51,307 nucleotides of DNA from Spirochaetota bacterium (GCA_043803405.1 JAZDKB010000039.1:1-51307), one strand, 5' to 3'; shown: positions 2,986 to 51,196, counted from the stretch's first letter. Notes: a model not told the origin generated them from the sequence alone. Made by a program: numbers and translations.

Positions 2986-3058
2986 CTGCCCGACCAGGAC
3001 TTGAACCTGGAGACTTCTGATCCAGAGTCAGACGTGTTACCAATTACACCATCGGGCA
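2986..3058 (-). tRNA. tRNA-Gln, anticodon CTG; CCA not encoded
   Basis: 73-nt cloverleaf TGCCCGA...TCGGGCA-G; anticodon arm TCTGA-CTCTGGA-TCAGA; T arm CCAGG-TTCAAGT-CCTGG. Confidence 0.97.
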
Positions 3059-42444: not shown

Positions 42445-42549
42445 ATGTTAAATAATAAATACAAAATATTTATTTTGTCTCATTGAGAGATTTATCGGGA
42501 GCCCGTGCGGTTTCCCTTAATGCATCTTACCGCCTTACTCACGCCCTAG
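42445..42549 (+). CDS. Putative Sec-containing leader peptide 1: MLNNKYKIFILSH-U-EIYREPVRFPLMHLTALLTP
   Basis: In-frame TGA 42484-42486; SECIS-like hairpin 42497-42516; 20 more codons to TAG; same layout in copies 2 and 3. Confidence 0.7.
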
Positions 42550-42623
42550 TGCCTCAGCTCACCTCCTGAGATACCGGCGCCGAAAAAGGCGGCCGGATTT
42601 TTAATATCTTAAGGAGGTTTTAA
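42484..42623 (+). promoter_or_regulatory. Attenuator-like structured leader, copy 1
   Basis: SECIS-like hairpin; CTCAG/CTGAG hairpin; anti-SD ACCTCCT 42561-42567; GC hairpin 42574-42596; SD AAGGAGGT 42611-42618. Confidence 0.8.
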
Positions 42624-43169
42624 ATGTTAAACAATTTAAAAAATTCAATATCGTCCAAACGGACGAAATGCGCTTCAGTTATCACGCTTTTTATAGTAAT
42701 AGCGTTCGTGCTTGCAGGATGCGCATCATTCCCGCCTTACGGCACATCCACAAAAGGCCTTGAACTGCCTATTGAAAAGGCGACTCTTAAGTTCATGGAG
42801 GATGTAAAAGCCGGCGGATACAAGATCGTAAATACAAGCGAGCTGAAGAAATGGTATGCCGAAGGCAAAAAGATGATCGTCATCAGCACGTTTCCGCCGG
42901 CGGACGACAAAGCATTGGGTACTCTTCCCTCTGCTGTAAGCGGCCCTATGCCTATGACGGAAAAAGAAGTTACCCAGGCAGTGAAGGACGGCATAATTAA
43001 GACAGCAGGCAAAGATAAGGATATGACTATTGTTGTGTATTGCGGTTTTGTGGCCTGCAGAAGGAGCCATCTGGGAGCAAAGACGCTCGCGGAAAGCGGA
43101 TATAAAAATGTTTACCGCTATCCTGGAGGCATTGCGGGCTGGAAGGAAGCATCTGCTCCTGCAAAATAA
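42624..43169 (+). CDS. Rhodanese-domain lipoprotein (sulfur/selenium transferase-like)
   Basis: Lipobox LAGC; IVVYCGFVACRRSH; VYRYPGGIAGWK. Confidence 0.88.
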   Translation: MLNNLKNSISSKRTKCASVITLFIVIAFVLAGCASFPPYGTSTKGLELPIEKATLKFMEDVKAGGYKIVNTSELKKWYAEGKKMIVISTFPPADDKALGTLPSAVSGPMPMTEKEVTQAVKDGIIKTAGKDKDMTIVVYCGFVACRRSHLGAKTLAESGYKNVYRYPGGIAGWKEASAPAK

Positions 43170-43187
43170 TTATTGAAAATATATTTG

Positions 43188-43222
43188 TGCCGGATAGACC
43201 GCTTTATGCGGTTTATCCGGCA
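43188..43222. terminator. Long hairpin after the rhodanese gene
   Basis: TGCCGGATAGACCGC-tttat-GCGGTTTATCCGGCA. Confidence 0.6.
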
Positions 43223-43232
43223 TTATGCAACC

Positions 43233-43691
43233 ATGAAGAAATTACAAATATCTCTTTCTTTTATATTGGTTTTTCTAGCTGTGTGTTGCGCCGGAAAACA
43301 GATAGAAGATGATAAGATAAAAAGACAAATAGATGTCTTTGGCGTTTATCTCTCTTCCAGTGTTGAGTATAAAGAAATTAACGGCGACCCTGCGGTTGAG
43401 GAATCGTGCTCATGTTCCGATGGATATGATCTCAATTTTGATGTACTTGATATAACAATCGGATATACGGCAAACAAAAAAATAAGAAAGATCACTACAT
43501 ATAATCCGGGTACAAGCATGTTCGGCATACGGCCGGGCATGTCTTTCAGCAGCAGCAGGCAAAAGATACTTGATGCTGGATTTAGCGAATCCGGCCGGTC
43601 TTTTATGTTCACTAACGGCAGGTATTTAGTTACTTTTCTTGTTGAGAAGAAGGATGATATTTTCGGGCTGATTATTGAAACGGCCGAATAA
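43233..43691 (+). CDS. Hypothetical exported/lipoprotein
   Basis: MKKLQISLSFILVFLAVCC signal; start moved from TTG 43173 to ATG 43233. Confidence 0.6.
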   Translation: MKKLQISLSFILVFLAVCCAGKQIEDDKIKRQIDVFGVYLSSSVEYKEINGDPAVEESCSCSDGYDLNFDVLDITIGYTANKKIRKITTYNPGTSMFGIRPGMSFSSSRQKILDAGFSESGRSFMFTNGRYLVTFLVEKKDDIFGLIIETAE

Positions 43692-43727
43692 AATTATATT
43701 TAAAGTTAAATTAAAAACAAAAACACG

Positions 43728-43835
43728 ATGTTAACAAAACAAAAAATCAAAATATTTATCGCGTTACAGTGAGCAACGCTTAGGAAGCCGGTGCGGCTTC
43801 CTAATATTGTCCTAACCGCCATAACTACGCCTTAA
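43728..43835 (+). CDS. Putative Sec-containing leader peptide 2: MLTKQKIKIFIALQ-U-ATLRKPVRLPNIVLTAITTP
   Basis: In-frame TGA 43770-43772; perfect hairpin 43780-43804; 20 more codons to TAA. Confidence 0.7.
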
Positions 43836-43912
43836 AACCTCAGTCAACCTCCTGAGATTCCGGCGCCTAAGCAGGCGGTCGGGATTTTAATATCATAAGG
43901 AGGTATTCAATT
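43770..43912 (+). promoter_or_regulatory. Attenuator-like structured leader, copy 2
   Basis: Same motif order as copy 1; anti-SD 43847-43853; SD 43897-43904. Confidence 0.8.
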
Positions 43913-44057
43913 ACTAAACAATCAAGAAGTTTGTTATCGGGCTGTAAATCCGTACGGCTACTATACGCTTTTTCCAGTGATATAATCTACAGGGAAGATT
44001 ATATTATGGCAAAGATTAATAATAATTTTATTATAAAATGAATTACAGGAGAGTAAA

Positions 44058-46754
44058 ATGAGTGATACCTTTATATTAAACGGAGAAGAAACGCCATTTA
44101 AGCAGGGTCAGATGATTCTGGAAGCGGCGCAAAATGCCGGAATCAAAATACCTACTTTATGCTATCTGAAAGGAACTACGCCTACCGGCGCATGCAGGGT
44201 TTGCCTGGTAGAAGTCAAAGGCGCGCGTTCGCTGATGGCATCATGTTCCACTCCGGTTACACCGGGGATGGAAGTAAGGACGGATAGCGGTCTTGTCCAT
44301 AGAGCGCGAAAAATGAATATTGAACTGCTGCTTGCCGGCGGCAGGCATAATTGTCTTGTCTGTGAAGCAAATGGCGATTGCCACCTGCAGGATCTGGCAT
44401 ATTCCTATAAAATCACCAATTTACGATTTAAAGAAAAAGAACGAAACAATATTTATCCGACAGAGGATCAAAACTCTTTCATTATCCGTGATTTTGGACG
44501 TTGTATCCTTTGCGGACGCTGCGTTCAGGCATGTAACGAGCTTGTAGTAAACCGCGCAATCTCGCAAGGCTATCGCGGTTCCGAAAGCAAAATTGTTACA
44601 GGCGGCGATCTGCCGTACGATAACAGCGAATGCGTATTCTGCGGTCAGTGCGTGCAAGTATGTCCTGTCGGAGCGCTGACGGAAAAGAAAGGCAAGGGAC
44701 TGGGACGATCATGGGAAGTCAAAAATGTCCGCACGACGTGTCCTTACTGCGGCGTAGGATGCCAGCAAAACCTTCATGTCAAGGGTGACCAGATAGTAAA
44801 AATTACAGCTGTTGAAGACGGTGCGCCGAACTATGGCAGATTATGCGTTAAAGGACGCTTCGCTTATGATTTCATTTACTCAAAAGACAGACTTACAACT
44901 CCGCTGATTCGTCAGAAAAACGGAGAGTTCAAGGAGGCTTCCTGGGACGAAGCGCTTGACCTTGTAGCGAAAAAATTCACAGAAATAATAAAAGAATCCG
45001 GCCCGGATTCAGTTGCCGGTATCAGCTGCGCTCGCAGTATCAATGAAGATTCTTACAATATGCAAAAGCTGTTCAGAGCCGTTTTCCAGACAAACAATAT
45101 CGACCATTGTGCCCGTGTCTGCCATGCGCCTACAGTCGCAGGTCTTGCAGCATCGTTCGGATCAGGCGCTGGCACCAACTCGATCAGCGAGTATAAAGAT
45201 GCAAAGATGTTCTTCATTATCGGATCGAACATGACAGAAGCTCATCCGGTTGCCTCCTATTATGTAAAGCAGGCAAAATTGAAGGGTGCAAAACTCATTG
45301 TTGTGGATCCCAGATACCACGAACTGGCAAAGATGTCTGATATTTATGCACAGATCAAGGTTGGTTCTGATGTGGCCTTTTTGAACGGCATAATGAATGT
45401 CCTGATAAACGAGAATCTGTACGACAAAAAATTTGTTGCTGATAACTGTACTGGCTTTGAAGATCTTAAAAAGACAGTCATGAATTATACGCCCCAAAAA
45501 GCAGCCGAGATAAGCGGAGTACCTGCTGAACAAATAATCCAGATAGCTCATCAAATGGCTGCCATAAGGCCGTCAATGCTGATTTACACATTGGGAATAA
45601 CGGAGCATTCCTGCGGTACAAACAACGTAATGAGCTGCGCCAATCTCCAGATGCTGCTTGGAAACATGGGCATTGAATTTGGCGGCGTAAACCCGCTTCG
45701 CGGACAGAACAACGTACAGGGCGCCTGCGACATGGGCGCGTTGCCGGTTGTTTTCCCTGGTTATCAGAACGTAACCGTGCCCGAGAACAGAGAAAAATTC
45801 ATAAAGGCATGGGGAGTTAAAAATCTTCCGGACAAGCCGGGATTGATGATAAACGCCATGATGGAAGGATTGCTCACCAAAAAAATACGGGCACTTTGGG
45901 TGTTCGGGGAAAATCTGGCCAATGCAGAGCCGAATATTACCCATACTGAAAAATGCCTGAACTCTGCCGAGTTTTTAGTTGTGCAGGATATTTTTCCAAA
46001 TGAAACGACAAAATTTGCTCATGTAATTCTTCCTGCCGCTGCATGGTGTGAAGACGAAGGAACATTCACAAGCCTGGAAAGGCGCGTAAGCATGGTAAGA
46101 AAGATAAAAGAAGCTCCTGGTATTGCGAAACCGGATTGGTGGATATTCAAGGAAGTCGCCAGGAAGATGGGACATGACTGGGCATCAAACAGCGCACGGG
46201 AAATCTGTGACAATGAACTGGCCGTATTGTGCCCGATGTTTGCAGGAATTAAATTTTCCAGGATTGAAAAGGACGGACTGCAATGGCCGTGTCCCGGCGA
46301 AGAACATCCCGGCACGCCGATTGTTCATAAAGACGGGAAATTCACCCATGGGAAAGGAATAATGAAAGGCATCGAATGGACCCCGCCGGAGGAAATCGCA
46401 GACAAAGATTATCCGTTGGTTTTGAGCACAGGCAGAAGGCTTTCCCAGTATCATACAAGAACGCAGACCGGCCGAAGCGGCATGGATGCTATTTACAGCC
46501 AGGAAACCGCCGATGTTTCCATTGCTGATGCAAGGGAAAAAGGAATAAAAGATGGAGAAATGATTGTCGTGAAATCCAGACGCGGGAAAGTAACTGTTCC
46601 TGCCCGGGTTACAGATGAAGTCCCCAAAGGCGTTGTCTGGATGACATTTCATTACCGCGACGGAAATTGCAACTGGCTTACCAATAATGCGTATGATACT
46701 GTAACAAAGACGCCTGAATACAAGGCCTGCGCGGTACAGATTGAAAGAGTTTAA
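44058..46754 (+). CDS. fdhF: Cytoplasmic Mo/W-bisPGD formate dehydrogenase alpha subunit, Cys-type, with N-terminal Fe-S domains
   Basis: IPTLC, GACRVCLV, CILCGRCV, CPYCGVGC, NIDHCARVCHAP, PLRGQNNVQGACDMG, TPEYKACAV; no Tat signal. Confidence 0.93.
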   Translation: MSDTFILNGEETPFKQGQMILEAAQNAGIKIPTLCYLKGTTPTGACRVCLVEVKGARSLMASCSTPVTPGMEVRTDSGLVHRARKMNIELLLAGGRHNCLVCEANGDCHLQDLAYSYKITNLRFKEKERNNIYPTEDQNSFIIRDFGRCILCGRCVQACNELVVNRAISQGYRGSESKIVTGGDLPYDNSECVFCGQCVQVCPVGALTEKKGKGLGRSWEVKNVRTTCPYCGVGCQQNLHVKGDQIVKITAVEDGAPNYGRLCVKGRFAYDFIYSKDRLTTPLIRQKNGEFKEASWDEALDLVAKKFTEIIKESGPDSVAGISCARSINEDSYNMQKLFRAVFQTNNIDHCARVCHAPTVAGLAASFGSGAGTNSISEYKDAKMFFIIGSNMTEAHPVASYYVKQAKLKGAKLIVVDPRYHELAKMSDIYAQIKVGSDVAFLNGIMNVLINENLYDKKFVADNCTGFEDLKKTVMNYTPQKAAEISGVPAEQIIQIAHQMAAIRPSMLIYTLGITEHSCGTNNVMSCANLQMLLGNMGIEFGGVNPLRGQNNVQGACDMGALPVVFPGYQNVTVPENREKFIKAWGVKNLPDKPGLMINAMMEGLLTKKIRALWVFGENLANAEPNITHTEKCLNSAEFLVVQDIFPNETTKFAHVILPAAAWCEDEGTFTSLERRVSMVRKIKEAPGIAKPDWWIFKEVARKMGHDWASNSAREICDNELAVLCPMFAGIKFSRIEKDGLQWPCPGEEHPGTPIVHKDGKFTHGKGIMKGIEWTPPEEIADKDYPLVLSTGRRLSQYHTRTQTGRSGMDAIYSQETADVSIADAREKGIKDGEMIVVKSRRGKVTVPARVTDEVPKGVVWMTFHYRDGNCNWLTNNAYDTVTKTPEYKACAVQIERV

Positions 46755-46764
46755 TTGAAGCAGC

Positions 46765-46797
46765 AAACCTTCCCGCTGCAAAAAGCGGGAAGGTTTT
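46765..46797 (+). terminator. Rho-independent terminator after fdh
   Basis: AAACCTTCCCGCT-gcaaaa-AGCGGGAAGGTTTT. Confidence 0.75.
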
Positions 46798-46852
46798 ACA
46801 AAATCGAATATATTATATGAGGAGTTAAATCAATTTTAACGTTTAATAAATT

Positions 46853-46960
46853 ATGTTAACCGGACAAAACAACAAAATAATTTTTTCCCAATATTGAGAA
46901 ACAGACCGGAAGCCCGTGTGGTTCCATAATATGTTTCCAGCCGCCTTAACTACGCCATAG
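46853..46960 (+). CDS. Putative Sec-containing leader peptide 3: MLTGQNNKIIFSQY-U-ETDRKPVWFHNMFPAALTTP
   Basis: In-frame TGA 46895-46897; hairpin 46908-46925; 20 more codons to TAG. Confidence 0.7.
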
Positions 46961-47038
46961 AACCTCAGAATACCTCCTGAGATTCCGGCGCCGGAAAAGG
47001 CGGCCGGACTTTTAATATCTTTATGGAGGTTTAAAATG
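46895..47038 (+). promoter_or_regulatory. Attenuator-like structured leader, copy 3
   Basis: Same motif order; anti-SD 46972-46978; GC hairpin 46984-47008; SD GGAGGT 47025-47030. Confidence 0.8.
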
Positions 47039-47152
47039 TTAAACAATCGCAAAAGTTTACTGTCGTGCTGTCGAACCGCACAGTCGCGATTCGTATCTTT
47101 CATTAATATAATGAACAGGGGGATTATGCTATGGAAAACGAACTATTGCTAA
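47036..47152 (+). CDS. 38-aa second uORF overlapping the hdrA start (possible translational coupler)
   Basis: Strong SD + ATG TTA AAC AAT, as at the rhodanese start; ends at TAA 22 nt inside hdrA in another frame. Confidence 0.45.
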   Translation: MLNNRKSLLSCCRTAQSRFVSFINIMNRGIMLWKTNYC

Positions 47153-50100
47153 AAGAAAAAATGCAGGAGCTTTACCGAACTTTTGGAGAGAGCAATTTTG
47201 GCGATGTTATGATAGTAGGCGGAGGGATCAGCGGCATTCAGGCAGCGCTCGATCTTGGAACCGCTGGATTTAAGGTTTACTTTGTCGAAAAATCACCGAC
47301 TGTAGGCGGCAAGATGGCCCATCTTGACAAAACATTCCCTACCAATGACTGTTCTATGTGCATTGAATCCCCTAAGTTTGTTGAATGCAACAGACATCCT
47401 AATATTGAGATCATGTCCTATTCTGAAGTTGAACGCGTAGAAGGGGAAGCGGGAGATTTCAAGGTTACTGTGATTAAGAAACCGAGATATGTAGACGAGG
47501 CTAAATGCACGGGTTGTACTGTATGTGTAGAGTACTGCCCGGTTAAGTACCCTGATGATTTTAACCAGAATATATCGAATAACAAAGCAATTCATATTTA
47601 TTTTGCCCAGGCTATTCCTTTAAAGCCTTACGTAGATGAAAGCTGTCTTTACCTTAAAGAAGGTAAATGCCGTATGTGCGAAGGAGTATGTAAGAATAAT
47701 GCAATAAATTTTAACCAGGTACCGGAGAAGGTTGAAATAAAAGTAGGGGCAATAATATTATCTCCTGGCATTGAGGCATTTAATCCTGAGATAATGAAGG
47801 AATACCATTACGGCGACTTTAAGAATGTTGTGACTGCCCTTGACTACGAAAGGCTGTTATGTGCCACCGGGCCGTACGAAGGCGAGATATTGCGTGCTTC
47901 AGACAAAAAGCATCCGCATAATATAGCATGGATTCACTGCGTCGGTTCCAGAAATGCTACAGAAGGGTCTAATAGTTATTGTTCGTCTGTGTGCTGCACA
48001 TATACCCAGAAACAGGTTATACTTACAAAAGACCATGACGGGGACGCGAAGTGCACTGTATTCCATAACGATATCCGTTCCTTTGGCAAGGATTTTGAGC
48101 GGTTTTACCAGAGAACAGCGGACCTTTCAGGGGTCCGCTTTTTCAAAAGCTATGTATCGATAATGAAAGAAGATCCGATAACCAGGAATGTAACAATACG
48201 GTATTATACACCGGATGAAGGGCTAAAAGAAGAAGAATTCGATATGGTAGTATTATCTGTCGGATTGGCTCCGCCTGCCAATGTTCAGAACCTGGCAAAT
48301 GTATTCGGGATAGAACTCAATTCCCACGGATTCTGCAAAAAAAATCCTATGAATCCAATGGAGACAACACGTCCGGGGATTTTCGTAAGCGGGGCATTCC
48401 AGGGGCCTATGGACATCCCTGAGGCGGTTCTATCCGCCAGCGGAGCAGGTTCTCAATGCGGCGAGCTCCTTTCCTACCGGAGGGGGAACCTTTCCAAAGC
48501 TAGGGTATACCCGCCGGAAAAGGATGTATCCAGTGAAGAACCAAAGATAGGAGTCTATGTGTGTCATTGCGGAGCCAATATAGGAAGGATAGTAAATGTA
48601 CCTTCCACTGTTGAGTATTCCCTTACATTGCCGAATGTTGTCCACGCAGAGGAAAGCCTCTTCATTTGTTCTACCGAAGCAGCCGCGATGCTGGCAAAAG
48701 ATATCAAAGAAAGAGGGCTTAATCGCGTAATTGTCGCTGCATGTACGCCCAGGACACATGAGCCGTTATTCAGGGATACGCTTCGTGAAGCCGGAATTAA
48801 CCAATATTATTACGACATGGCAAATATAAGAGAACATTGTTCGTGGGTACACTCAAAAGAGAAGGAAGCTGCAACACAAAAGGCAAAGGATATAATCCGG
48901 ATGTCGGCAGCGCGTGCCTGCTTTCTGGAGCCTTTGCAGGAATTTGAGCTGCCAGTCAATAAAGTTGCCATAGTAGTCGGCGGCGGCGTAGCAGGCATGA
49001 CCAGCGCTCTCTCCATAGCCAGGCAGGGACACGAGGTTCATTTGATCGAAAAGGAAAAACAGCTTGGAGGACTGGCGCGTAAACTTCATTACACCATGGA
49101 AGGACATGATGTCCAGGCATTCCTGAATGATCTTATAAAAAAGATTTATAAAAATCCTTTAATACATGTATACACAGACGCATCCATTCCGGAAGCTTCA
49201 GGTTATGTTGGAAATTTCATTACAAAAGTAAAGTCCGACAGAGGGATCGTAGAGATAAAACACGGAGCGATAGTCATTGCTATAGGCGCTGACGTTTATA
49301 AACCCACTGAATATCTTTATGGGCAGGATGACAGGGTGTTAACCCAGCTTGAGCTGGAAGAAAAGATAACCAATAAAGATGAAGTGATAAAAAATGCAAA
49401 AAATACTGTGATGATCCAGTGCGTAGGCTGCAGGAATGAAGAAAGAAATTATTGCAGCAAGATATGCTGCGGAGAGTCTGTAAAGAATGCCTTAAAACTG
49501 AAAGAAATAAATCCTGAGATGGATATCTACATACTATTCAGGGATATGAGAACATACGGATTTAATGAGGATTATTACAGGGAAGCAAGAGGCAAAAATG
49601 TAAGATTTATCCGTTATGAGACGGATGACAAACCCCTGGTTGAAGCTGTTAAGGAAAACGGCAAGAGTATTCTTAGGATTACCGTAACAGATCAGACATT
49701 AAATAAGAAGGTAGCCATAGATGCCGATGTGATTGCCCTGGCTGTGGCAATAATTCCATCTGCCGGCAGCCAGGAAATATCACGGTTGTTTAAAGTGTCT
49801 ATGGGGCCGGATGGTTTCTGCCAGGAGGCACATGTTAAATTAAGGCCTGTTGACTTTGCCGCGGAAGGCGTTTACCTGTGCGGTATAGCGCATTACCCCA
49901 AGCTTATATCTGAAACTATCAACCAGGCTTACGGGGCAGCAGGACGTGCATTAACTCTTCTTGCAAATGATACTGTCGTGGCATCGGGCTCTGTTTGTAC
50001 TGTAGATGAAAAAATGTGTATGGGATGTGGGGCATGTGCTCCTGCGTGTACATATAACGCGGTAACGCTTAACGAAACAAAACAGGGAAGAAAAGCCTCG

Positions 50101-50226
50101 GTTATCCCTGTGCTTTGTAAAGGATGCGGTCTTTGCAACTCAAAATGTCCGACAGGGGCTATACAGCTGAAGCATTATACCGATAAAGAGCTTTTCGGCC
50201 AGATTCTTGCCGGTCTTTCCGAATGA
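47131..50226 (+). CDS. hdrA: Heterodisulfide reductase subunit A-like flavo-iron-sulfur protein with duplicated FAD modules
   Basis: GGGISG, LDKTFPTNDCSMC, CVGSR...YCSSVCC, VYVCHCGANI, ANIREHCSWVH, second GGGVAG, EAHVKLRPVD, C-terminal ferredoxin. Confidence 0.93.
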   Translation: MENELLLKEKMQELYRTFGESNFGDVMIVGGGISGIQAALDLGTAGFKVYFVEKSPTVGGKMAHLDKTFPTNDCSMCIESPKFVECNRHPNIEIMSYSEVERVEGEAGDFKVTVIKKPRYVDEAKCTGCTVCVEYCPVKYPDDFNQNISNNKAIHIYFAQAIPLKPYVDESCLYLKEGKCRMCEGVCKNNAINFNQVPEKVEIKVGAIILSPGIEAFNPEIMKEYHYGDFKNVVTALDYERLLCATGPYEGEILRASDKKHPHNIAWIHCVGSRNATEGSNSYCSSVCCTYTQKQVILTKDHDGDAKCTVFHNDIRSFGKDFERFYQRTADLSGVRFFKSYVSIMKEDPITRNVTIRYYTPDEGLKEEEFDMVVLSVGLAPPANVQNLANVFGIELNSHGFCKKNPMNPMETTRPGIFVSGAFQGPMDIPEAVLSASGAGSQCGELLSYRRGNLSKARVYPPEKDVSSEEPKIGVYVCHCGANIGRIVNVPSTVEYSLTLPNVVHAEESLFICSTEAAAMLAKDIKERGLNRVIVAACTPRTHEPLFRDTLREAGINQYYYDMANIREHCSWVHSKEKEAATQKAKDIIRMSAARACFLEPLQEFELPVNKVAIVVGGGVAGMTSALSIARQGHEVHLIEKEKQLGGLARKLHYTMEGHDVQAFLNDLIKKIYKNPLIHVYTDASIPEASGYVGNFITKVKSDRGIVEIKHGAIVIAIGADVYKPTEYLYGQDDRVLTQLELEEKITNKDEVIKNAKNTVMIQCVGCRNEERNYCSKICCGESVKNALKLKEINPEMDIYILFRDMRTYGFNEDYYREARGKNVRFIRYETDDKPLVEAVKENGKSILRITVTDQTLNKKVAIDADVIALAVAIIPSAGSQEISRLFKVSMGPDGFCQEAHVKLRPVDFAAEGVYLCGIAHYPKLISETINQAYGAAGRALTLLANDTVVASGSVCTVDEKMCMGCGACAPACTYNAVTLNETKQGRKASVIPVLCKGCGLCNSKCPTGAIQLKHYTDKELFGQILAGLSE

Positions 50227-50350: not shown

Positions 50351-51196
50351 ATGAGTTCAGAAGGTAAATTCACGCCAAAGATGTTAGGTATAATCTGTAA
50401 CTGGTGCTGTTATGGGGGAGCTGACCTATGCGGAGTTTCGCGCTTTCAATATCCTACTTATATTAGATTGATAAGGGTGATGTGCTCAGGCAGGGTTGAC
50501 CTGAAACACATATTTCTTGCTTTTGCGAACGGAGCGGACGCGATGTTTGTCGGCGGATGCCATATTAATGACTGCCATTATAATCCGGAAGGAAATTATG
50601 ACGCGCTTAGTATGGTAAATCTATGCAGGAAATTGCTGGAACACATTGGAATAAACCCGAAACGCTTAAGACTGGAATGGGTATCGGCAGGTGAGGGTAT
50701 CCGTTTCGCAAATATTATGAATGAATTTGCCAAAGAGATTGAGGGTTTGGGGCCTTTGGGCAAAAGCGAAGGAATAGATGCGAATGAATTAAAATCCAGA
50801 GTTGAGGAAATCACAAAGCTCATCCCGTACTTTAAACTGGTAAAAATGAAGGAACTGGCGCTGCATAATCAGGATCAGGAATCGTATACTAAACTTTACA
50901 CAACTGAAGAAGTGGAAAAACTAATCCGCGAAGTACCTGCTTACTATATCGAACCGGAGAAATGCCAGGCATGTATGACCTGTGCCAGAAGATGCCCAGC
51001 AGACGCGATAATAAGCGCAAAGCAGGAAGTGCATATAATAGATCAGGAAAAATGCATAAAATGCGGGACATGCATAGAAGCCTGTCCGCCGAAATTCAAG
51101 GCAATTACAAAGATAGTTGGTGCACCTGTTCCGCCATCACTTCCTGAAGGAAAAAGAGCCGTAATCAGAAAGAGTAAAGAAAAAGAGGTTGCATAA
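50351..51196 (+). CDS. mvhD: MvhD/FlxD (2Fe-2S) subunit fused to a C-terminal 2x[4Fe-4S] ferredoxin
   Basis: CNWCCYGGAD, RVMCSGRVD, GCHINDCHY, WVSAGEG; CQACMTC...CP, CIKCGTC...CP. Confidence 0.9.
   Translation: MSSEGKFTPKMLGIICNWCCYGGADLCGVSRFQYPTYIRLIRVMCSGRVDLKHIFLAFANGADAMFVGGCHINDCHYNPEGNYDALSMVNLCRKLLEHIGINPKRLRLEWVSAGEGIRFANIMNEFAKEIEGLGPLGKSEGIDANELKSRVEEITKLIPYFKLVKMKELALHNQDQESYTKLYTTEEVEKLIREVPAYYIEPEKCQACMTCARRCPADAIISAKQEVHIIDQEKCIKCGTCIEACPPKFKAITKIVGAPVPPSLPEGKRAVIRKSKEKEVA

Follow-up and report, generated by a model that had tools for sequence, protein, structure and literature searches.

Leaders with a conserved in-frame UGA in a Spirochaetota bacterium as candidate selenium-responsive attenuators

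Leaders and genes at the locus

The present study analyzes three homologous leaders of approximately 175 nucleotides (nt) in a stretch of DNA from Spirochaetota bacterium (GCA_043803405.1 JAZDKB010000039.1:1-51307; G+C 42%), the whole 51,307 nt of which is referred to here as the window. The leaders are positioned upstream of a rhodanese unit, of an fdhA (formate dehydrogenase alpha) unit and of an hdrA-mvhD unit (Table 1), and they are considered below as candidate attenuators that would respond to the insertion of selenocysteine (Sec). All three contain a small frame with a common layout of ATG, 13-14 codons, an in-frame UGA, exactly 20 sense codons ending Thr-Pro, and a stop, and each frame opens with ATG TTA. 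A preliminary description of the locus had reported three such frames with the UGA at codons 14, 15 and 15, the 20 codons, the Thr-Pro ending and the stops TAG, TAA and TAG, and direct reading found it correct in every one of these particulars. Mean identity among the three leaders was 81%, with a 3-nt gap separating leader 1 from leaders 2 and 3 in the alignment, and because the leaders are paralogues their mutual agreement is in itself weak evidence. Covariance model searching brought the total in this genome to four copies, the fourth being located on another contig (G000:C15:17490-17670), where its frame starts ATG ATA, has UGA as codon 13, and continues for 20 codons to Thr-Pro and TAA.

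The FdhA, HdrA-like and MvhD proteins encoded in the window are of the cysteine (Cys) type. When these proteins were used as queries in tblastn, a second locus was identified on contig C4 with FdhA, HdrA and MvhD paralogues of 72.8%, 71% and 63% identity, respectively, in which a TGA is positioned exactly at the Cys residues of the window proteins. The covariance model detected four leader copies genome-wide and none at this Sec locus. The rhodanese gene showed a weak, sub-threshold likeness to selenoprotein rhodanese families. The fourth leader precedes an operon encoding a double-cubane-cluster reductase (NF040772, 463.5 bits against a cut-off of 350), an activase, a MetN/MetI/MetQ-like ATP-binding cassette (ABC) transporter, and a NifB-like radical S-adenosylmethionine (SAM) protein.

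Table 1. Coordinates of the leaders, their parts and the neighboring genes, counted from the first nucleotide of the window.
Feature	Coordinates	Strand	Details
Leader 1, overall	42445-42619	+	upstream of rhodanese-domain gene 42624-43169
Leader 1, small frame	42445-42549	+	ATG 42445; TGA 42484-42486 (codon 14); 20 codons with ACG CCC last; TAG 42547-42549; read from sequence; frame conservation over 25 elements
Leader 1, hairpin like a selenocysteine insertion sequence (SECIS)	42497-42515	+	7-base-pair (bp) stem, 5-nt loop CGUGC; 6-pair core 11 nt past UGA
Leader 1, antiterminator 5′ strand Pa (CCGCCUU)	42530-42536	+	pairs with 42586-42592; RNAalifold, unguided MAFFT alignment
Leader 1, antiterminator 5′ strand Pb (CGCC)	42542-42545	+	pairs with 42576-42579; RNAalifold, unguided MAFFT alignment
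Leader 1, hairpin Pc (CCUCAG...CUGAG)	42552-42572	+	74.8% paired
Leader 1, anti-Shine-Dalgarno stretch ACCUCCUGAGAU in Pc	42561-42572	+	pairing to 42606-42618 read by eye
Leader 1, terminator-like hairpin	42574-42608	+	arms CCGGCGCC 42574-42581 and GGCGGCCGG 42588-42596, tail AUUUUUAAUAUC; core 89.6-97.3% paired over 25 elements
Leader 1, Shine-Dalgarno AAGGAGG	42611-42617	+	read from sequence
Rhodanese-domain gene	42624-43169	+	Pfam Rhodanese, E 9.1e-10
172-codon frame between rhodanese gene and leader 2	43173-43691		no Pfam or NCBIfam match
Leader 2	43728-43905	+	ATG 43728; TGA 43770 (codon 15); 20 codons with ACG CCT last; TAA 43833-43835; terminator arms 43860-43867 / 43874-43882; U-run to 43894; 142.8 bits
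Leader 2, Shine-Dalgarno	43898-43903	+	without start codon behind
fdhA, Cys type (formate dehydrogenase alpha)	44058-46754	+	TIGR01591, 840 bits; Cys355 codon TGC 45120-45122
Leader 3	46853-47031	+	ATG 46853; TGA 46895 (codon 15); 20 codons with ACG CCA last; TAG 46958-46960; terminator arms 46985-46992 / 46999-47007; U-run to 47019; 139.1 bits
Leader 3, Shine-Dalgarno	47025-47029	+	read from sequence
38-codon frame behind leader 3 Shine-Dalgarno	47036-47152	+	starts MLNN like the rhodanese gene; overlaps hdrA start
hdrA-like gene, Cys type	47131-50226	+	Pfam/NCBIfam; Cys77 codon 47359-47361
mvhD/FlpD gene, Cys type	50351-51196	+	Pfam/NCBIfam; Cys19 codon 50405-50407

Conservation of the UGA, the frame and the hairpin that follows

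A first covariance model of 130 nt, beginning 6 nt after the TGA and excluding both the TGA and the ATG, was run on 101 related genomes and detected 21 elements in 15 of them, and in all 21 a TGA was present exactly 6 nt before the model start, with an in-frame ATG 11-14 codons upstream in 20 (GTG in the remaining one) and exactly 20 codons to the next stop in 18. A second model (R2), built from these 21 elements, was run on the 122 genomes of the order (a class-level search covered the identical set), and 20 of them contained 27 matches in total, of which 25 in 18 genomes were kept as true elements and the two weakest were dropped. The two, L181 and L183 (27.5 and 25.5 bits), had no UGA and were read as other hairpins. 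A pattern scan of metagenomes added six true elements among 66 loci, every one with the UGA and 20 codons, five with ATG and the sixth with TTG read at the aligned start position; three further metagenome loci without UGA (L251, L257 and L275, 20.7 bits each) were counted as false. The preliminary description had suggested a covariance-model search of genomes and had expected homologous leaders to keep the UGA and its frame, as they do: UGA, frame and spacing were retained in 25/25 genomic and 6/6 metagenomic elements, the UGA being exactly 6 nt ahead of the model start in each genomic element and at its fixed place in all 31.

The frame on both sides of the UGA is similarly constrained. An open in-frame ATG was found 10-16 codons 5′ of the UGA in 24/25 elements, with GTG in the exception, compared with 0/25 in each other frame. 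Between the UGA and the distal stop there were 20 codons in 19 elements, 17 in two, 21 in one and 25 in three, and the first stop in the other two frames was spread over 1 to 125 codons. The distal stop was TAA in 17 elements and TAG and TGA in four each, and since a stop is kept while its identity varies, the triplet appears to be selected as a stop. Length differences were multiples of three, including a 3-nt insertion in L050 that results in 21 codons, and the Ile codon located 4 codons 5′ of the UGA varies among ATT, ATC and ATA within the window's family of elements. The last codon before the distal stop encodes Pro in 19/25, and this codon also belongs to the antiterminator strand Pb described below. 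Slow release at a Pro-stop may lengthen occupancy by the ribosome.

Downstream of the UGA, a GC-rich stem of 6-7 bp begins 11 nt 3′ of it in 25/25 elements, with 95.3% of cells paired in the 25-element alignment, and the 5-nt loop contains GU in 24/25 (loops observed being CGUGC, CGUGA, CGUGU, GGUGC, AGGUU and AGGUC). The FdhA-Sec gene of the same genome has a SECIS that is alike in build, consisting of a 6-bp GC-rich stem and the loop GGUCU, with a spacing of 12 nt past the UGA compared with 11 nt in the leaders. The geometry of the leader hairpin also agrees with that of the minimal E. coli fdhF SECIS, which has a spacing of approximately 11 nt and the loop residues G23/U24. From these features of the sequence we infer that the leader UGA is read as Sec. 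A lone SECIS_2 match in the window was located in the region of the fdhA Cys codon (45115-45169; 23.9 bits compared with a gathering score of 70, E 0.24), and this stretch may have been left over from an ancestor with Sec, or protein conservation alone may account for it.

The preliminary description would have been undermined by a genome without sel genes, and these are present: selD (with one in-frame TGA), tRNA-Sec, selA and selB are adjacent in one locus on contig C26, which has no leader copy. It had also expected leaders only in sel-positive genomes, and in line with this a weak association was seen, SelA being found in 100/122 genomes of the order, in 18/18 genomes with a leader, and the leader in 0/22 genomes negative for SelA.

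Alternative RNA structures and a candidate attenuator

When 21 elements were aligned with MAFFT without structural guidance, RNAalifold predicted the SECIS-like hairpin plus two helices, Pa (CCGCCUU with AAGGCGG) and Pb (CGCC with GGCG), both of which enclose the small hairpin Pc. In the alignment of 25 elements, for which the model used in fitting had Pa and Pb in it (the unguided alignment yielded the same helices), 88.9% of cells of this ON structure were paired, compared with 39-56% when partners were slid by 1-3 columns. Thirty-five cells were changed on both sides of a pair, compared with 13.9 in shuffles, none of 500 shuffles reaching 35, and in Pa double-sided changes affected 5/7 pairs. 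Pa and Pb pair on their 3′ side with sequences that also make up both arms of the GC-rich hairpin CCGGCGCC / GGCGGCCGG, such that antiterminator and terminator share strands and are mutually exclusive. In the window copies this candidate terminator combines a GC-rich stem of 8 bp, interrupted by one bulge, with a following run of 4-6 U. Directly 5′ of it, ACCUCCUGAGAU can pair with the Shine-Dalgarno region directly 3′ of it, and the OFF form would thus be one long hairpin with the U-run at its end and the ribosome-binding site buried. The core of this form (terminator plus Shine-Dalgarno core) was 92.6% paired, with little variation. One further candidate, a long-range helix between AUGUUAA at the leader start and UUAAUAU past the terminator, arose in the prediction based on the three copies of the window and was dropped because the fourth copy does not have it.

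The switch is positioned consistently relative to the frame. Pa begins 46 nt past the UGA in 24/25 elements, which is well outside the reach of a ribosome positioned at the UGA. In 20/25 the first nucleotide of the distal stop is 2 nt past the end of Pb, and in the other five the stop is still within the Pa-to-Pc region; read-through of the UGA must therefore leave the Pa and Pb strands covered by the ribosome. As to which step would be controlled, the Shine-Dalgarno of leader 2 is not followed by a start codon, and fdhA, which begins 152 nt farther downstream, has a ribosome-binding site of its own, so that only termination can regulate there, and the Shine-Dalgarno of leader 3 serves only the 38-codon remnant frame. 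These two layouts argue for termination as the regulated step in the window. Promoter-like sites were not enriched in a simple scan (13 compared with 10.4 in shuffles).

Taken together, each leader is probably a ribosome-mediated attenuator in which a recoded, Sec-type UGA acts as the control codon, with the genes off when Sec is inserted and on when selenium is lacking. A ribosome would initiate at the leader ATG and arrive, 11-14 codons later, at the UGA, where SelB with Sec-tRNA(Sec) and the SECIS-like hairpin 11 nt downstream would allow Sec to be inserted and 20 more codons to be translated. At the distal stop the ribosome would cover Pa, Pb and the 5′ arm of Pc, and with the antiterminator strands covered the GC-rich hairpin, the U-run and the anti-Shine-Dalgarno:Shine-Dalgarno helix would form and the genes would be off. 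If selenium were short and Sec-tRNA(Sec) low, release factor 2 (RF2) would terminate translation at the UGA, 46 nt before Pa, the antiterminator would form, and the downstream genes would be transcribed and translated. The direction of control is read from the position of the distal stop, and it fits the genes that would be regulated, i.e. Cys-type FdhA, HdrA and MvhD, whose Sec paralogues are leaderless, and the YedE transporter. The preliminary description had proposed both the attenuator and this direction, and the distal stop on Pa/Pb together with the Cys-type and YedE gene set speak in favor of each.

The genes next downstream of the 25 elements form a narrow group. A double-cubane reductase (NF040772) or its remnant followed 14 elements, FdhA and an HdrA-like protein three each, and a rhodanese, a DUF169 protein and YedE one each, leaving one element before a 67-codon frame without Pfam match and one with no adjacent gene. 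Cys-type FdhA and HdrA are likewise positioned behind leaders in both other genomes of the genus, one of which also has a leader ahead of a DUF169 gene. The YedE gene, from a related genome, encodes a putative selenium transporter (TIGR04112, 499.6 bits), and yedE transcripts are described as strongly raised by selenium starvation in Methanococcus maripaludis in the portion of PMC11097638 available to us. The genome of the window itself had no YedE (TIGR04112) at an expect value (E) up to 1e-40 in an assembly that is 94% complete, and both other genomes of the genus have one. For the double-cubane family, the accessible part of 10.1101/2022.07.06.499078 gives 955/970 occurrences in SelD-positive genomes, and the double-cubane reductase operon probably serves selenium acquisition. 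Overall, the predicted regulon is one that matches the needs of a selenium-starved cell, comprising Cys back-ups, YedE in relatives, and the double-cubane operon.

It seems reasonably likely to us, in addition, that a race between RF2 and SelB/Sec-tRNA(Sec) at the leader UGA measures the capacity for Sec insertion and decides expression of a selenium-starvation regulon, that this is the first natural attenuator based on stop-codon recoding, and that the double-cubane operon, with its activase, MetNIQ-like transporter and NifB-like radical SAM protein, is a selenium-scavenging system. NifB fuses two 4Fe-4S clusters, and the NifB-like protein could therefore mature the double-cubane cluster. The operon is located at G000:C15 (locus L051, 7667-13279), where the NifB-like protein matched TIGR01290 at 278.9 bits, below the cut-off of 343.65.

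Several observations weigh against a selenium-responsive attenuator. Equilibrium folding with no ribosome made the terminator core dominant in 12/25 elements and the antiterminator (Pa) in 10/25, and a footprint at the UGA changed this little (10/25 and 12/25, respectively). With the footprint at the distal stop Pa was formed in 0/25 and the terminator in 18/25, a loss of Pa that is partly built into the constraint, and predicted accessibility of the Shine-Dalgarno was alike across the three states (0.20, 0.18 and 0.21). Because the folding energies are ambiguous, the claim that the genes are on without read-through rests on covariation and on the order of co-transcriptional folding. No Shine-Dalgarno precedes the small frames of the window's own family. 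A simple terminator scanner did not call the leader hairpins, possibly as a consequence of the bulge in the stem, and in members of the f4 family of the order the U-run is weak, such that control there may be translational only. One element (L038) has a loop without GU, CGGGC. The Rfam SECIS models (SECIS_2 to SECIS_5) gave no match to the leader hairpins at E up to 10; these models derive from particular selenoprotein genes. Finally, the association with SelA is statistically weak, given that 82% of the order is SelA-positive and the genomes are related, and the leader is absent from 82/100 SelA-positive genomes of the order.

Four other explanations were weighed. The frame could encode a functional selenopeptide of 34-35 residues, followed by an unrelated terminator or riboregulator. 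Conservation of the frame, the UGA and the hairpin is in keeping with such a peptide, as is a hydrophobic I-F-I-x-L-x that recurs before the UGA in the window's family with synonymous Ile codons, but the N-terminal halves diverge widely between families, and the sequence encoding the C-terminal half is, base for base, that of the hairpin and of antiterminator strands that covary as RNA. Moreover, the stop shifts (17, 20, 21 or 25 codons) and yet stays on the switch, and the element has been copied as a unit before unrelated genes, all of which makes a selenopeptide unlikely. We consider it very unlikely that SelB regulates independently of translation, with its complex bound to the hairpin shifting the fold and the frame undecoded. 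Such binding would explain why the top and loop of the hairpin are over-conserved for a plain hairpin (invariant C-G pairs, GU in 24/25), but it leaves unexplained the in-frame ATG (24/25 compared with 0/25 in either alternative frame), the constant position of the UGA 11 nt before the hairpin, the conserved distal stop, and the restriction of insertions and deletions to 3-nt steps. If, alternatively, the UGA were an ordinary stop, with the frame reporting general translation or RF2 activity and the hairpin causing a pause or being structural, nothing in the system would be specific to selenium. UGA is read only by RF2, and equilibrium folding was the same for no ribosome and for a ribosome at the UGA, both consistent with an ordinary stop; the open frame past the UGA with its conserved stop, the SECIS-like geometry, and the narrow selenium-related gene set would then all be coincidences, and we give this explanation a similarly very low probability. 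Least probable is a small-molecule riboswitch with the Pa/Pb/Pc junction as its aptamer, e.g. for a selenium compound, and with the overlapping frame there by chance or as a second input, because a covarying three-helix junction with conserved unpaired bases ahead of an expression platform would suit an aptamer but the Rfam search returned no matching family, the strands of the junction are part of the coding frame with the stop placed on them, and the conserved features of the frame are left unexplained.

The preliminary description had likewise regarded a match to a known riboswitch as damaging to its proposal, and the leaders matched no Rfam family. At the gathering threshold Rfam identified one tRNA only in the whole window and nothing on the leaders, and the leader matches obtained at E up to 10 were far below gathering (rli47, 17 compared with 200; ncr952, 16.5 compared with 100 and on the opposite strand).

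Comparison with known systems, distribution and evolution

Sensing of selenium by bacteria is an unsettled question, and we know of no mechanism for switching between Sec and Cys isoenzymes in bacteria. Thanbichler and Bock in 2002 reportedly described a SECIS-like element in the E. coli selAB 5′ leader that acts on the sel genes themselves and lacks both a leader peptide and a decoded in-frame UGA. The present leaders are like it in having a SECIS-type leader hairpin and, as proposed, regulation tied to the SelB/Sec-tRNA complex, but unlike it they have a conserved small frame with UGA, are not at the sel locus, and would target Cys isoenzymes and selenium-acquisition genes.

Leader-peptide attenuators of enteric amino-acid operons (trpL, hisL and others) are the more general precedent, as covered in the portion of PMC3892789 available to us. 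In common with them, the proposed attenuator would have a short leader frame in which the position of the ribosome picks antiterminator or terminator, and one charged tRNA would be sensed. There are three differences. First is that the single control codon is a stop, the decision being between UGA termination and SelB recoding as opposed to stalling and progress. Secondly, it is the ribosome moving farther that would switch expression off, since at a fixed distal stop it would occupy the antiterminator. Thirdly, a SECIS-like hairpin in the mRNA would form part of the sensor. The same portion of PMC3892789 states that an attenuator for a rare amino acid, of which Liu et al. made a synthetic version, was unreported in nature. 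It also describes fdhF(Sec) of Treponema primitia, in which, as proposed here, selenium is read at a Sec UGA and downstream transcription hinges on passage of the ribosome; however, that UGA is within the selenoenzyme gene and passage keeps expression on, whereas passage of the leader UGA would turn Cys-type genes off.

Two other systems share part of the logic. The polycysteine leaderless short open reading frames of mycobacteria, according to the available part of 10.1101/834739, are also short upstream frames that sense an amino acid, one chemically near Sec, and control an operon, but they use runs of sense codons, and that part of the source describes neither stop recoding nor a SECIS. 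HrsM of Methanococcus maripaludis resembles the control proposed here in that Cys isoforms and yedE are up under selenium shortage; unlike an mRNA leader with its ribosome, HrsM is a protein repressor acting on DNA, for which the sensing of selenium is stated to be unknown in the portion of PMC11097638 at hand. A literature search that had most subscription journals outside its coverage found no description of a leader of the kind reported here.

The known distribution of the leader is narrow. R2 matched 0/134 sampled genomes of the phylum outside the order, and a scan with a degenerate GC-rich pattern returned 120 stretches, mostly from high-GC genomes, with 0/80 examined loci being true R2 elements and a single chance R2 match at 18.3 bits among them. 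Upstream of 28 double-cubane and 30 yedE loci, a scan for ATG, UGA and a GU-loop hairpin found only an already known element, using a filter that recovers just 17/25 known elements; a cruder first version of the filter failed on a known positive.

Other genomes of the order usually have a single copy, located before the double-cubane gene, a site that is probably ancestral. Within the window, remnants of the start of the rhodanese gene were present behind two leaders. Behind leader 2, positions 43906-43950 are a decayed rhodanese 5′ end in which the ATG is now ATT, and behind leader 3 we infer from its MLNN start that the 38-codon frame is a remnant of a copied rhodanese 5′ end. These remnants indicate that the leader was copied together with a gene start and placed before fdhA and hdrA, and such duplication within the genus shows how a regulon grows. 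Approximately 100 nt past the rhodanese remnants of leaders 2 and 3, a TATAAT-like stretch is conserved between the two and may be a second promoter. Two leader plus double-cubane units, L265 and L289, were positioned about 9 kilobases apart on one metagenome contig, a second case of duplication within a genome.

If the proposed mechanism is true, stop-codon recoding is added to the inputs of ribosome-mediated attenuation, and the leader, a candidate cis-acting sensor of approximately 175 nt, marks selenium-starvation genes by their regulation and not by homology. It would then also be the first feature to connect double-cubane reductases with selenium through regulation, a connection for which the accessible part of 10.1101/2022.07.06.499078 gives only co-occurrence. 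A possible use is as a natural switch responsive to selenium or Sec.

There were several damaged double-cubane genes behind leaders, in genomes and on metagenome contigs, which reflect either recurrent decay or assembly artefacts. In L041 and L178 an internal deletion fuses the N-terminal HDALL motif to the later DALL(I/V)NQVFFYD motif, in L036/L253 the N-terminus runs directly into the C-terminal end, a TAG nonsense codon interrupts the gene in L044, and in L038, L179 and L305 only remnants are left. In the window, the 172-codon frame that follows the rhodanese gene resembles a lipoprotein signal peptide when read from an ATG at 43234, with a strong hairpin just before it at 43200-43232. The tRNA gene, which alone in the window reached an Rfam gathering threshold, is located at 2986-3058 on the minus strand (67.4 bits). 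Directly 3′ of fdhA, at 46768-46800, a hairpin with a 10-bp stem (CCUUCCCGCU with AGCGGGAAGG) followed by UUUU, which was missed by the simple scanner, is probably a terminator dividing the fdhA unit from leader 3.

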